The notes below the pieces were generated by a model. It was not told the DNA's origin. It saw only the letters and a program-made list of their open reading frames with translations, and did not search any database. The position numbers were made by a program, and so were the translations under genes. Positions 7,301 through 43,901 of a stretch of DNA of 43,901 nucleotides are shown in pieces; the stretch's first letter is position 1; each line of letters starts with the position of its first letter. The stretch comes from Trichormus sp. ATA11-4-KO1 (lineage in GTDB: Bacteria > Cyanobacteriota > Cyanobacteriia > Cyanobacteriales > Nostocaceae): contig JAHHIM010000038.1 in NCBI GenBank assembly GCA_019358915.1, positions 1 through 43,901 on the forward strand. Direction: 5' to 3'.

Positions 7301-7416
7301 CAAGAAAGGCAGAAAGGCAGGAGGCAGAAGGGAATTCTACTTCCTGCTCTTTGCCTACGACTGGAAGGAGTAAGGGTTCCTTCTGCCCTCTGCCCTCGTA
7401 CTTCTGCCTTCTTCAA
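7301..7416 (+). mobile_element. 116-bp heptamer-armed non-autonomous element (TTAT|CAAG...TTCTTCAA)
   Basis: Inverted GGCAGAA/TTCTGCC arms; removal restores the host frame; internal core degenerate. Confidence 0.7.
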
Positions 7417-7465: not shown

Positions 7466-7645
7466 TTGAAGAAGTCAGGAGCCAGGAGTCAGGAGTCAGA
7501 ATCAATGAGTTGGGGATTCTGACCCGCCACTCATTGTAGACCACCATATTTTTAATTTGGTGGGGGTCTTATACCCAATTATTCATCCGCCAGTCACACA
7601 GAATTCAATTCTGAATTCTGAATCCTGACTCCTGAATTCTGTTTG
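7466..7645 (-). mobile_element. 180-bp heptamer-armed IS200/IS605-like non-autonomous element (minus strand TTAT|CAAAC...TTCTTCAA)
   Basis: AGGAGTC/GACTCCT arms, conserved double-hairpin core, removal restores the host frame. Confidence 0.8.
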
Positions 7646-7722
7646 ATAATTTAACTGGTTACAGAGTAGTAGAAACTTTGCTTCAAAAAGAGAAAATCAC
7701 CGGGATATCCATAAAGCATGAT

Positions 7723-9261: not shown

Positions 9262-9654
9262 ACGAAGACCCACTATTTTTTGCCGACAGCATTTTCCTCA
9301 AAAGTTCAGAGAGAATCGAGTCGTTGGCAATGATTATGGGTTTATGTCTGCTGGTTTATACCTTGGCTCAACGTCAAAAAGAAGGGTGTGGGGTGCAGGG
9401 TGTGGGGTGTAGGGAAAATCAGTAGGGGCTTGAACCCACCACTGATTGAAGACCACCATACCGTAGGTTGGTGGGGGCTTGTACCCCTTTGTTTCGGGGG
9501 TAGAGTGTATCCCTACAACACGATTTTTCTTTTCTCCCTACCCCCTACACCCTACCCCCTACACCCTAGTTTTGGTCAAATCAGAACTGCACTCAGAAAA
9601 TCTAATTCCTCTCCGTAATTTCCCTCTGTGACAGTTTAGGGTGCGGAAGGTGGG
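9262..9654 (+). mobile_element. IS1634-family transposase 3' remnant with right terminal repeat
   Basis: DPLFFADSIFLKSSERIESLAMIMGLCLLVYTLAQRQ|IRTAL; end GGGTGCGGAAGGTGGG. Confidence 0.75.
9373..9574 (-). mobile_element. 202-bp heptamer-armed IS200/IS605-like non-autonomous element (minus strand TGAC|CAAAACTA...TTTTGAC)
   Basis: GGGTGTG/A and CCCTACA arms, double-hairpin core, removal rejoins LAQRQ-IRTAL. Confidence 0.85.
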
Positions 9655-9655
9655 A

Positions 9656-9910
9656 TTAAACTCTACGAGTATACGCAAAAAATGTAGCAATAGCTGCATC
9701 TACAATCGTATTTCTTAATTGATAAGATTCACTAGTACAAATGCAGAAAGCAATCGAAATGAACGAACACCAGCTAAACATTAAAATCCAATAATGGTAA
9801 TCAGAAAACAGAATAGTTGGGTATCTATCGACGATTATCTTTACAAATTTGCTCCCTATGAATGCAAAAGTAATAAACAAAACCAATTGTGCAATTACAA
9901 TAAAATCCAT
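9656..9910 (-). CDS. Small membrane protein
   Basis: 84 aa, hydrophobic segments, AGGAG SD. Confidence 0.65.
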   Translation of the reverse strand: MDFIVIAQLVLFITFAFIGSKFVKIIVDRYPTILFSDYHYWILMFSWCSFISIAFCICTSESYQLRNTIVDAAIATFFAYTRRV

Positions 9911-31616: not shown

Positions 31617-32237
31617 TTAAATAGAATGAGTTGCACCAGAGGCAAATATTTGTTGTGCTGTTAATTGCAAACTAGGAAATACTGAAGAAAAAAGCGGATC
31701 ATTATTTTGAAATAGGTGTTTATGGTACTGATCTTCTATTAACGTACAAATCGTAATTGTTGGTTGTTTAGGCTTGCCAATATATTCTCTACCGCCAATG
31801 CCCAAATAATCAACAATCCAGTATTCAGTTACTCCTAACAAAGCATAATCTTCAACTTTACGAGCATAGTCATTCTGCCAGTTTGTACTGACAACTTCAG
31901 CTATTAATTTGATTGATTTTCCTAATGTAATTACAGGTTCTTTTTGCCAGAGTGGTTCATTAATCAGTTGCATTTGGTCTAACACAACCACATCGGGACG
32001 AAAAGCTGTGTTTGTCCCTAGCAATTTAATTAGACAGCGATGGGGAATAACATAGGATACTTCTTGGCGGTCGATTTCAACATTTAATTTTCGCCCAATA
32101 AAACCAGATACTTGCTCATGTGGCCCAGTGGGTTCCATGTCTACTAATTCCCCATCAATTAATTCATAACGAGTGCTATCACCATAGTTGGTAATGAATT
32201 CATCAACAGTTAAAAGTTTTGGTGCGAATTGAACCAT
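31617..32237 (-). CDS. Uma2-family (DUF820) endonuclease-like protein
   Basis: RYELIDG, RPDVVV, AEVVS, DY..K..Y...G..EYWIVD. Confidence 0.92.
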   Translation of the reverse strand: MVQFAPKLLTVDEFITNYGDSTRYELIDGELVDMEPTGPHEQVSGFIGRKLNVEIDRQEVSYVIPHRCLIKLLGTNTAFRPDVVVLDQMQLINEPLWQKEPVITLGKSIKLIAEVVSTNWQNDYARKVEDYALLGVTEYWIVDYLGIGGREYIGKPKQPTITICTLIEDQYHKHLFQNNDPLFSSVFPSLQLTAQQIFASGATHSI

Positions 32238-32711
32238 TTTGATTGTGTTGGTAATTTTTGGATCATCTGTTCTACAGATTCAATTGCAACTCCTTTGCCT
32301 TGATCAATTTCGGATAAACCCTCTTTGACCTTTTTTGAATTCAAAATTCAAAATGCAAAATGCAAAATGAAGAAGAAATAAAAAAATTGAATTAATTAAT
32401 TCTGGGTACAAGCCCCCGTCATAATCTCTGATTTGACGGTCTTAGATTAGTGGTGAGTCCCCTACGGGAATTAAAAATGCAAAATGCAAAATGCAAAATG
32501 AAGAAGAAATAATTTTGAATTTTGAATTGATAATTTTGAATTGTTTTGCCCCCATTAATCTCTTTAATTTTGAATTTTGCATTTTTAATTTTGAATTGGA
32601 GCGAAGCGACTTGACAGCAGCAATAAATTCGATTTTCCGAAGAATCTCACGCAGAGTCACATTTTCGGGTAAGCGTTTTACAAGTTCAAGAACTGTTTCT
32701 CGGTCACTCAT
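32210..32711 (-). pseudogene. Small antitoxin-like protein interrupted by an insertion
   Basis: Reconstructed MSDRETVLELVKRLPENVTLREILRKIEFIAAV|KEGLSEIDQGKGVAIESVEQMIQK... Confidence 0.7.
32330..32615 (+). mobile_element. 286-bp heptamer-armed IS200/IS605-like non-autonomous element (TGAC|CTTTTTTGAA...GCGACTTGAC) with a nested insert
   Basis: CAAAATT/G and AATTTTG arms, same termini as 43576-43778, removal restores the host frame. Confidence 0.88.
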
Positions 32712-33377: not shown

Positions 33378-33782
33378 TAATTCGTAATTCGTAATTCGTA
33401 ATTATTTTTCTTTGAGTTTTCTGGTTGAAGCGGTTAAAATTTTTCCTATTTCATTTGCCTCTGTCAAAAGTAAGGTAAATTTTTGCTGTTCTACTAGTTC
33501 AGATTCGATTAATATTTCTAACCAGTATTGGGTTTCTCTTGCCTCCTTTAACGCGATTTCTAATTTGTTAATAAAATCTTTGTCAGATTGGGCTGATTGT
33601 GCTTCTCGACAATTTGCACCTATTGAAGTTCCAGAACGAAGCAGTTGTTTAGACAAAGTTCTTAAAACTCCAGACTTTTCATCCAGAAAACAACAAGCTT
33701 TAATAATTCTGACCGCAAATGCTTTAGTTCTATGCGTTATGCTAGTTTTCATCTTCAATTACGAATTACGACTTACGAATTA
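33378..33782. repeat. Inverted TAATTCG arrays enclosing copy A
   Basis: 33378-33403 vs 33757-33782, 25/26 complementary. Confidence 0.9.
33402..33752 (-). CDS. Four-helix-bundle protein (23S rRNA IVP / Avd-like), copy A
   Basis: KQLLRSGTSIGANCREA..SDKDFINKLEIALKEARETQYWL. Confidence 0.92.
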   Translation of the reverse strand: MKTSITHRTKAFAVRIIKACCFLDEKSGVLRTLSKQLLRSGTSIGANCREAQSAQSDKDFINKLEIALKEARETQYWLEILIESELVEQQKFTLLLTEANEIGKILTASTRKLKEK

Positions 33783-35611: not shown

Positions 35612-36125
35612 TTAACGTTTTATTAGCCAAGGTGATGGATTATTGATTATGGTTACTAAAATACCTAGAACTTTGTTATAAGTTCCATATAATTCCCTAC
35701 CTGTTTCAACATCTAAATAGCCGCATTTCACTGCAAATTTTAGCCATGTTTGTGTTTCTGCGGACTCTGCTTCACAGTCATTTAATTTAGCGATAAAAGC
35801 AGCTTCGTAGCGTCGCTTTCTCCATGCTTCTGCCATATTTGCACAAACAGAACGAGATGATCTACGAATTTGATCTGTTAATGAGTATCTTTCTTCAATA
35901 GGGAATTTCTTAGATAGGTCAAAAATTCTCATTGCGACATCAAATGCCATTTTATAAACTTCTAAGTCCTCATGGTTTTTTATTTATGAAAAAAAAGTTA
36001 GGTTCAAAACCTCGCCCCTTGTGGGCGAAACAGTCCTTGTATCCCAAGGTAGGTAGAAACCCCACCCCTTGTGGGTGGCTGTATTTAATTTTGAATTTTG
36101 AATTTTGAATTTTGAATTGATTCAT
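35612..36125 (-). pseudogene. Four-helix-bundle protein copy B; 5' end interrupted (an ORF remains from ATG 35950)
   Basis: MNQ|IKNHEDLEVYKMAF..FPIEERYSLTDQIRRSSRSVCANMAEAW. Confidence 0.85.
35984..36116 (+). mobile_element. ~130-bp double-hairpin element with an AATTTTG array (boundaries approximate)
   Basis: GGTTCAAAACCT-CGCCCCTTGTGGGCG and GGTAGAAACC-CCACCCCTTGTGGGTGG. Confidence 0.7.
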
Positions 36126-38344: not shown

Positions 38345-38767
<423 letters not shown>

Positions 38768-39840: not shown

Positions 39841-40188
39841 CAATTCGCAGTTCGCAGTTCGCAGTTCGCAATTAAATACCAATTTTAAAAAAGATGCGAC
39901 AGATACACACTCTCAAATCCCTGTCATATCTAGCTTTTTTAATGTTGAAGAATTAGTATGAGAACCCACAACTGTAGCTTGTTTCCCTGTAGCGGTAGTT
40001 GAGGACTTGAATATTGATGGGTGAGCAATTTCTTTTTTCGCATGATTGAAATCAGGAGCTTGTAGCCTGAGTGAATTAATCTTAAATGTTCCATTCATAA
40101 TTGCGAATTGCGTTCGCGGAGCGTGCCGTAGGCTCTATTGCAAATTGCAAATTGGTATAACTCCTGACTCCTGACTCCTGACTTCTAT
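39841..40188. repeat. Composite of heptamer arrays, an SDR-like insert and an IS605-like hairpin fragment
   Basis: TTCGCAG array, TTGCAAA/TTGCGAA units, GACTCCT array, GCGTTCGCGGAGCGTGCCGTAGGC. Confidence 0.7.
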
Positions 40189-40537
40189 TCCTGTACACAT
40201 TACGCTATCTCCGTATATTTGGATATCTGTACTTACTCCGTCTGTACTACATTCACTACCCTATGAGAAAAAAATGTACCAACTTTCCGGGGTTTAAGAA
40301 TCAGATTATGTACACTCAGCTTCCTAACGTTCTGCTGAATCCCTTTCTAGCAAGCATTTCAGCGTTGTAGTACAACAGTAGCACATTAATCTATGGTTTT
40401 TGGCAATCTTTGAAAAGTCTATTTTTGGTAAATTCAGCAGAATGAATGTAGTCTGTCATTGAAGGCAAAAATTTAATGAATCCTTGTCTAACCAGTGTAT
40501 TTGGCTGTAATCAGCAACTATTCCGCAGGGCATTTTT

Positions 40538-42877: not shown

Positions 42878-43901
42878 AGAACTCTTGCATAAATATTTTT
42901 TGGTATAATGAAGGGTTATTTTTCTTGACGTTAAAGAAGTTAAAATAGCCACAATTTACAAAGTTTCTCATATTAACTGTTGCTGGAGAGTCCTTACTTA
43001 AAAAGTTGATATAGCAAACTGGTTCAGCAATTATTTATTTGCTGAATTAGGATGATTATTTCTGCTTTATTTAAGCTTTTAAAGCTAATTCATGATTGTA
43101 GATTCCGGCAATCAAATTAGACCTTAATCCAAATCTGCGATGGCGATTTCGGTATTGATTAGATAAAATATTGAATATTTTTAGCCGACGATTAACGTGT
43201 TCAACCACAATTCTTAATCGATTAAGTTCTCGATTAGATTGCTTCTGTTCTTTAGTCAATTTCTTACCTTTCAGTTTCTTAATCGGTGTTTCGCTTAATT
43301 GATGAATTTTCTTAATCCCTTGATAGCCTTTATCCGCGATAACTTTGAGCAATTCTCCAAATCTTACACCACTTGTTTTAAATAGCCGAAAATCATGATT
43401 TCTTCCCTTACCATGCCCTAGACAAATAACTTGACCGCTTTTTTGGCAAACTATTACTTGCGTTTTTAAAGTATGTTCTCCTTGTTTACCGCTAAAAAAT
43501 TTTTTTTGCCCTTTTTGTGGTCTTTCAATTGGACTTTCCATTACATCCATCACAACTAATGCTTCCTGTGATGACCTTTTTTGAATTCAAAATTCAAAAT
43601 TCAAAATGCAAAATGAAGAAGAAATAAAATTTTGTAATTGATTAATTCGCTCGTTCAAGCCCCTGCCATAATCTTTGATTTGGCAGTCTTAAATTAGTGG
43701 CGAGTTCAAGCTCCCACTAATTGTCTTTAATTTTGAATTAATAATTTTGAATTTTGAATTGGAGCGAAGCGACTTGACATTTTTAATAGCTCTTTCTTAC
43801 CAGGTAGGCTGAACTTTCTTGAACTGATCAATATATTTTCAATTTTGTAAACTGTTCGACATACTGCGGATTCTGAAAGTCCCCAATCTAATCCAATGTG
43901 A
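42878..43901 (-). mobile_element. IS5-family (IS702/ISL2-like) element, running off the window; transposase interrupted
   Basis: End AGAACTCTTGCATAA at ~42878; HIGLDWGLSES..LPGKKELLKM|SSQEALVVMDVMESPIERP..HD..ADKGYQG..RIVVEH. Confidence 0.88.
43576..43778 (+). mobile_element. 203-bp heptamer-armed IS200/IS605-like non-autonomous element (TGAC|CTTTTTTGAA...GCGACTTGAC)
   Basis: Same termini as 32330-32615, double-hairpin core, removal restores the transposase frame. Confidence 0.9.

Follow-up and report, generated by a model that had tools for sequence, protein, structure and literature searches.

A probable PATE-like derivative of IS605 whose right end is unusual, in a Trichormus genome: evidence pointing to a fold of single-stranded DNA

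The repeated hairpin core found in a 43,901-nt stretch of Trichormus sp. ATA11-4-KO1 DNA (the window, contig C38 of the 5.97-Mb genome G000 analysed here, 41.7% GC; other G and L numbers denote comparison genomes and loci) is probably the cis-acting part of a non-autonomous 'peel-and-paste' element, a derivative of the cyanobacterial IS605 clade that would be moved in trans by a Y1 HUH TnpA and in which a left and a right guide (GL and GR) would set the cut sites. The demonstrated part of this reading is that the stems covary, that the elements insert precisely and duplicate no target, that guides and sites correspond at the left as well as the right end, and that the left end is homologous to that of autonomous IS605 elements. 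As judged from sequence, the element would be PATE-like, derived from IS605 but with a right end that is unusual, and the evidence favours a single-stranded DNA fold over a tRNA-like RNA.

All stems listed in the earlier note are present in the window and their coordinates were located (Table 1). Among the variants of the second stem, CCACCA occurs in the copies at 9373 and 7466 and CTGCCA in that at 43576, whereas CCGTCA/TGACGG sits in a fourth copy and in none of the three named earlier. The TTCAAG loops are present as well, but their strands had been mixed, since the loop is on the minus strand in the element at 9373 and on the plus strand in that at 43576. A strict structural descriptor gave six matches in the 5.97-Mb genome, every one a family member, and the seed alignment of 27 sequences contained double changes in 17/24 pairs. 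The suggestion that structure is conserved while sequence varies was borne out by covariation in a larger alignment of 102 copies, in which 89.7% of cells were paired and 22/24 pairs carried double changes. The covariation score of this alignment was 0.423, as compared with 0.169 for shuffles (0/500 reached the observed value) and at most 0.128 for slid-partner controls, these scores not being p-values, as the copies are related and the 102 matches were fitted to the model and are hence biased toward structure. The GGG/CCC inner hairpin, likewise described earlier, is present but covaries weakly (0/3 pairs in the seed alignment, 2/3 pairs among the 102 matches). Part of the stem covariation could arise without selection, via template-switch correction of quasi-palindromes, and the mirroring of the target in Bacillota copies (see below) is a warning that stem covariation alone is no proof of selection.

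The core sits inside non-coding elements of 180-290 nt with heptamer arms. Every subfamily encloses the common core in heptamer arms of its own, and the arms move together with it. Comparison of copies at unrelated loci, by which the bounds were set, revealed sharp and asymmetric ends: on the strand with the TTCAAG-type loops, elements start with C directly 3' of a conserved tetranucleotide, and this C is the first base after the left cut on the top strand in all four window elements. The left targets are TTAT, TGAC, TTAA and sometimes TCAA, and the right termini TCAA, TGAC, TGAA or TTAA. The left linker is the longer one, with left/right lengths of about 100/45, 82/37 and 86/56 nt in three window copies.

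Table 1. Positions of the elements and their parts in the window (cleavage sites and guides are predicted).
Feature	Coordinates	Strand	Details and basis
Whole mini-element, 202 nt	9373..9574	- (active 'top' strand)	Ends TGAC (9373-9376); near-identical copy with unrelated flanks at G000:C28:35372-35578
Target tetranucleotide TGAC, predicted left cleavage site, outside the element	9575..9578	-	Present in both copies, whose homology ends shortly after it; expected from left guide CAAG
Left guide hairpin GGG-TA-CAAG-CCC	9475..9486	-	Guide 9478-9481; sequence; same form in autonomous IS605 left ends
S2, left-end imperfect palindrome CCACCA/TGGTGG	9453..9474	-	Covariation
S1, permuted right-end hairpin with single bulge, AATCAGT/ACTGATT (9417-9423/9441-9447)	9417..9447	-	Proposed right guide CAAG in loop, 9429-9432; covariation; loop/end correspondence
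Right heptamer arm, TACACCC-type	9377..9416	-	Sequence
Left linker with heptamer arm, partly complementary to right arm	9487..9574	-	Sequence
Second element, 180 nt, CAGGAGT-type arms	7466..7645	-	Same core and arms in nested G000:C28 copy
Second element, ends	7646-7649; 7466-7469	-	Target TTAT; terminal TCAA
Second element, core	7567-7570; 7541-7563; 7503-7536	-	Left guide AAGA; S2 (CCACCA/TGGTGG stem as at 9453); S1 (AATGAGT/ACTCATT) with guide GAAT 7516-7519
Third element, 203 nt	43576..43778	+	Inside DDE transposase gene; homologues L547, L548 without insert
Third element, ends	43572-43575; 43775-43778	+	Target TGAC; terminal TGAC
Third element, core	43656-43659; 43663-43686; 43690-43722	+	Left guide CAAG; S2 (CTGCCA/TGGCAG); S1 (AATTAGT/ACTAATT, 43692-43698/43716-43722) with guide CAAG 43707-43710
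Fourth element, 286 nt	32330..32615	+	Target TGAC 32326-32329; interrupts small ORF
Fourth element, core	32409-32412; 32416-32439	+	Left guide; S2 (CCGTCA/TGACGG); S1 broken by inserted stretch
Core-less derivative TTAT/CAAG...TCAA, GGCAGAA arms	7301..7416	+	By eye, matches both arms of complete G001 element L148

Several further repeats accompany these elements. SDR-like units of 20-27 nt interrupt S1 and S2 in many copies; short units starting, for example, GCGTAGCGTCTC or TTCCCGTAGGG are inserted into S1, S2 or the linker at L012, L028, L277, L281 and L305 and in the window at about 32445-32465. Short derivatives with a single CAAG guide hairpin are found in G000 (C42:25575-25607, C27:29609-29641, C2:134919-134951, C36:497083-497115 and C9:101956-101988) and have TGAC at both ends where flanks are visible. 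The window abounds in heptamer repeats, and further arrays of them without the core lie at 39841-39879 and 40105-40190. Similarity to the stretch 9606-9660 recurs at numerous contig ends (C46, C55, C3, C40, C16, C10), and this stretch probably belongs to a repeat left unassembled, within which a transposase could be hidden. Genes with the four-helix-bundle domain PF05635 occur in the window at 33432-33740, 35657-35971 and 38404-38709 (-) and give 11 matches in the genome, the two that were inspected adjoining heptamer arrays. Such cassettes were rejected as the parent of the elements, as in the two inspected by eye the heptamer flanks were common and the core and termini absent.

Comparison of occupied and empty sites indicated insertion without target duplication. 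The gene broken by the third element encodes a DDE transposase (PF13359/PF01609; 43071-43901, minus strand); its two uninterrupted homologues have one TGAC, and in-silico removal of the element leaves 40+167 open codons. The fourth element splits a small ORF without Pfam match (32213-32711, minus strand, starting at 32711), and its removal leaves 41+39 open codons. These heptamer-armed elements thus break genes by precise insertion. The 7466-type copy on C28 of G000 is nested in another element, the empty form of which is seen at about 32500-32515 of the window with no duplication, and the copy on C23 sits in one unit of a tandem duplication that serves as an empty-site comparison. Out of 18 loci in genome G001, 13 have a paired orthologue in G000, and these include two precise empty sites and one near-precise, the rest being shared or rearranged; the two precise sites (L148 and L159 compared) read GTAT for TTAT in one case and TTAC in the other. 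Elements of the form TTAT...TCAA have empty sites without target duplication.

The correspondence between loop letters and element ends follows the guide rule of IS608, in which the third pair joins guide base 4 to site base 4, in agreement with the IS608 combination AAAG/TTAC. In the accessible text of earlier work, the tetranucleotide guide of IS608 base-pairs with the cut site in a crossed manner, guide base 1 to site base 2 and base 2 to base 1 (PMC5934647, PMC3201880), and three of the four guide bases take part at IS608-type ends (PMC3479197). When this rule was applied to the last four bases of each loop, the very bases that had been compared with T-loops co-varied with the ends (CAAG/TGAC, AAGA/TTAT, GAAT/TCAA, CAAT/TGAA, AAAT/TTAA). 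In terms of the loop, it is positions 4, 5 and 7 that vary with the terminal tetranucleotides, in the non-linear manner of the DNA-guide rule. From 152 loci, 54 right and 50 left ends were scored, namely those whose guide could be parsed and for which two or more partners agreed. In cyanobacterial elements the S1 loop matched the right end exactly in 28/54 cases (shuffled mean 9.0, maximum 18) and the left guide its site in 19/50 (shuffled mean about 7.8, maximum 15), the relatedness of the copies causing the shuffles to overstate significance. With a boundary tolerance of 2 nt the counts were 32/50 on the left (shuffled 15.5) and 29/54 on the right, and plain antiparallel 4-bp pairing, which was rejected, fitted 9/54 right and 9/50 left ends. 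The right-end support comes from five guide classes, and the two retrieved sets whose S1 search patterns fixed the last three guide letters (AAT) cannot test right-end guide positions 2-4.

Minimal pairs isolate guide position 4: AAGA/TTAT against AAGT/TTAA; CAAG/TGAC against CAAT/TGAA and CAGA/TGCT; GATG/TCAC against GAGT/TCAA; and ATGA/ATAT against ATGT/ATAA. For genome G206, TGNT was predicted in advance from the loop CAGA, and TGCT was found in 3/5 loci. About half of the automatically called ends miss the rule, many of them visibly mis-called inside the arms. Genuine misfits also occur and include CAAT loops with TTAA ends in the GAAGGAA family of G000 and G001, GAGT left guides with TTAA or TGAA targets, AAGA and AAAA guides with TTAC targets and, in Bacillota, ATGC and AAGC guides.

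Beyond the window, the covariance model built from 27 copies recognized 29 places in G000 and matched 37/151 related genomes of the order, and close sequence matches of the element were found on plasmids of Nostoc, Tolypothrix and relatives. An S1 pattern also retrieved arm-less elements of Bacillota (28/80 loci, with more in metagenomes, and 11/401 genomes with up to 114 matches each). The same pattern had no match in viral contigs, and a plasmid search with a Bacillota element as query returned one 28-nt Nostoc match only. A repeat of about 500 bp that carries four element copies in G136 (L081-L084) was set aside as a separate repeat in which the element is a passenger.

The Bacillota elements have a canonical left hairpin, a permuted S1 right hairpin with the proposed guide in its loop and no heptamer arms. 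Their guide/target classes are ATGT or ATAT/ATAA, ATGA/ATAT, GATG/TCAC, GAGT/TCAA and AAGT/TTAA; 16 of the 24 left guides parsed from the 28 loci fit the rule, and at right ends CAAT is accompanied by TGAA. In one lineage (G551, G181, G526 and L311) the S1 loop, mostly GAGT, predicts TCNA, the elements end in TCAC, and a canonical GAAG-hairpin-TTCAC right end lies 3' of S1; hence, S1 is not always the operative guide. The loci of this lineage (L514-L535 of G551, G181 and G526, and L311) carry the left hairpin, S1 and the canonical right end (TTTAT ... TTCAC), the base after the element end is almost always T, and G551 alone holds 114 S1 matches. In Lachnospiraceae-type elements (L259, L253, L426, L458 and relatives) target and left end together recur, as their reverse complement, in the 3' arm of S1, and this arm differs between elements according to the target; such mirroring may reflect extended target pairing, self-sequestration or mere template-switch copying.

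With regard to ancestry, autonomous cyanobacterial IS605 elements with divergent tnpA/tnpB show a left end of the form GGG-N-guide-CC in 17/18 parsed tnpA loci (30 retrieved), and 14/16 sites readable by eye fit the guide rule, so that a guide enclosed by GGG/CCC is native to the left end of this clade. Their right ends are canonical (GAAT, hairpin, TCAA). From its sequence, S1 may be understood as a circular permutation of such an end: the bulge-bearing strand (..GG-N-GGG), usually located after the hairpin loop, here comes before the guide, the duplex being kept and the guide placed in a loop of 6-7 nt. No Y1 transposase was matched in the G000 draft assembly, which yielded a TnpB relic and a RAYT-like fragment only; PF01797 was present in 5/5 other element-rich genomes. 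The candidate TnpA clade was not enriched in element-bearing genomes (10/37, as compared with 45/151 overall). Among the retrieved loci there was no autonomous element with an S1-type right end, the natural IS elements inspected had canonical ends, and tblastn of 36 TnpA/TnpB queries against the element loci gave no match inside an element.

On the top strand the proposed layout would be the target tetranucleotide and left cut, C.. and heptamer arm, GGG-N2-3-GL-CCC, S2, TCT, S1 (whose loop holds GR), a second heptamer arm and, lastly, the terminal tetranucleotide with the right cut. TnpA supplied in trans would bind S2 and S1 on single-stranded DNA and presumably perform the cutting. The loop guides would capture both cut sites by base-pairing, GL at the target, where the left cut falls, and GR at the right cut (guide bases 1, 2 and 4 with site bases 2, 1 and 4, respectively); the element would leave as a circle and insert 3' of the tetranucleotide set by the left guide. 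The invariant first loop T may complete a T-A*T triple as its third base, a role comparable to that of A-10 in IS608. The arms, when paired, would fold back and so bring the cut sites effectively closer.

The earlier note had left the choice between a selected single-stranded DNA and an RNA fold, and had likened the TTCAAG loops to tRNA T-loops. A structured RNA with two tRNA-like T-loops, either retro-mobile or regulatory, appears very improbable, even though most loops fit U-N-N-R-A, the top strand folds as RNA with z of -3.4 to -6.1 and G-U cells slightly exceed A-C cells (97 to 69). The same strand also folds well when treated as DNA (z -3.1 to -6.2), loop position 4 is C in 18/100 right loops, and an RNA role leaves unexplained why loop letters match a target outside the element. 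An Rfam search (the window at gathering score, six loci at E<=1) returned nothing relevant and ARAGORN no tRNA. The likeness to T-loops arises because almost every loop has T at position 1 (121/123 left and 94/100 right loops) and A at position 5 (122/123 and 99/100); positions 4, 5 and 7 follow the DNA-guide rule. The DNA half of the earlier alternative is therefore the one retained. Equally hard to credit is a DDE-moved MITE that uses the inverted heptamer arms and carries the core as a passenger, its apparent covariation coming from template-switch correction of quasi-palindromes. The arms are indeed imperfect inverted repeats, TGAC...TGAC elements resemble a duplication of 4-5 bp, and the Lachnospiraceae-type S1 arm mirrors its target as template switching would yield. 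This identity is largely refuted by the empty sites, as TTAT/TCAA sites show no duplication; furthermore, the termini differ from each other although the arms are inverted, the Bacillota versions lack heptamer arms, and the crossed guide rule, not being palindromic, cannot stem from template switching.

A less remote though still unlikely alternative accepts an IS605-type element and gives S1 a purely auxiliary role, comparable to that of the second hairpin in the left end of IS608; cutting at the right would then be directed by the left guide or by another tetranucleotide nearer the end. The lineage of G551, G181, G526 and L311, in which S1 coexists with a canonical right end and the GAAG guide fits TCAC, speaks for it, as do the GANT words within CAGGAGT-type arms and the occurrence of one-guide short derivatives in G000; where both ends are TGAC or both TTAA, one guide could serve both. 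For the TTAT...TCAA and TTAT...TGAA families, however, the left guide cannot account for the right end; 3' of S1, copies of the 9373 type and those with GGCAGAA arms contain no further tetranucleotide that would fit; and across five classes the S1 loop changes together with the end. The reading with both guides in the core is thus preferred.

We lean, by a modest degree, towards a broader conclusion: that these are IS200/IS605 mini-elements of a class spanning phyla, whose right-end guide the transposase reads from the loop of a circularly permuted hairpin and whose two guides make up a compact central, retargetable module. If true, such a module would be retargetable by four loop letters and would mobilize whatever lies between two distant cut sites, amounting to a minimal programmable cassette for single-stranded DNA insertion, and it would explain the spread of a share of the heptamer (STRR) arrays in filamentous cyanobacteria. 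It offers a testable mechanism for heptamer-armed cyanobacterial repeats of hitherto unexplained spread, and the natural guide/target combinations, at least eight in number, provide natural evidence on end recognition by TnpA. A right-end topology unlike that of the IS608 and ISDra2 structures would imply that the duplex beside the guide, and not the hairpin tip, matters. PATEs as such are already known and common; in the literature searched, which was largely open-access, neither this family nor a right guide carried in a loop was found to be described.

STRR heptamers and the repeats SDR1-8 of Nostocaceae, the latter of 21-27 nt, were reportedly described by Elhai et al. in 2008, who may have noticed the present elements as sequences. 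Such repeats share organisms and heptamer arms with our elements, which differ from SDRs in being larger hosts; STRR and SDR repeats are mentioned second-hand in the available parts of PMC4390886 and PMC5861425. REP/REPIN sequences with TnpA-REP (RAYT) are likewise non-coding hairpin repeats tied to a Y1 nuclease, but, in the portion of PMC3479197 at hand, their 5' GTAG is fixed and their cut site is a dinucleotide; this identity was rejected, since the guides here vary over at least eight classes and match tetranucleotides. The autonomous cyanobacterial IS605 clade (e.g., G103:C284, locus L124) has left ends near those of the mini-elements, either TGAC|CAAAA..GGG-ATA-CAAG-CCC or TTAT|CAAA..GGG-TTT-AAAA-CCC, each followed by a hairpin, and differs in its canonical right ends (GAAT, hairpin, TCAA) and in having no heptamer arms.

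With IS608 and ISDra2, as described in the accessible sections of PMC3201880, PMC5934647, PMC3597680 and PMC3479197, the elements share insertion 3' of a tetranucleotide, specification of the site by three of four guide bases, a longer left linker and C after the left cut, the C+1 preference being given in PMC5934647 and PMC3201880. In contrast to these systems, cyanobacterial copies carry no palindrome 3' of the right guide, and the distance from that guide to the end is 37-56 nt where a canonical guide lies about 10 nt from the cut; the linkers of the window copies measure 82-100 nt (left) and 37-56 nt (right), against 19 and 10 nt in IS608. By analogy, such long linkers would be compatible with the flexible guide-site spacing of GstTnpA (PMC10055086, in part) and with the 27-nt left linker that works in IS608 (PMC3597680, in part). 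The closest resemblance is to PATEs of Haloquadratum walsbyi (PMC3119063) and Geobacillus stearothermophilus (PMC10055086), which, as far as the available text of both papers goes, are gene-less, insert without target duplication, carry two palindromes related to IS605 ends and a target-adjacent motif that co-varies with a DNA guide, and often occur without an intact tnpA. In the present elements both palindromes are fused centrally, heptamer arms separating them from the cut sites by 37-100 nt, and it is the loop of a permuted hairpin that holds the right guide, whereas the guide of the PATEs described there lies 5' of the foot of the following hairpin. Because target, guides and ancestry agree with PATEs but the right end departs from the canonical layout, the element is best described as a variant and not as a plain member of that group.
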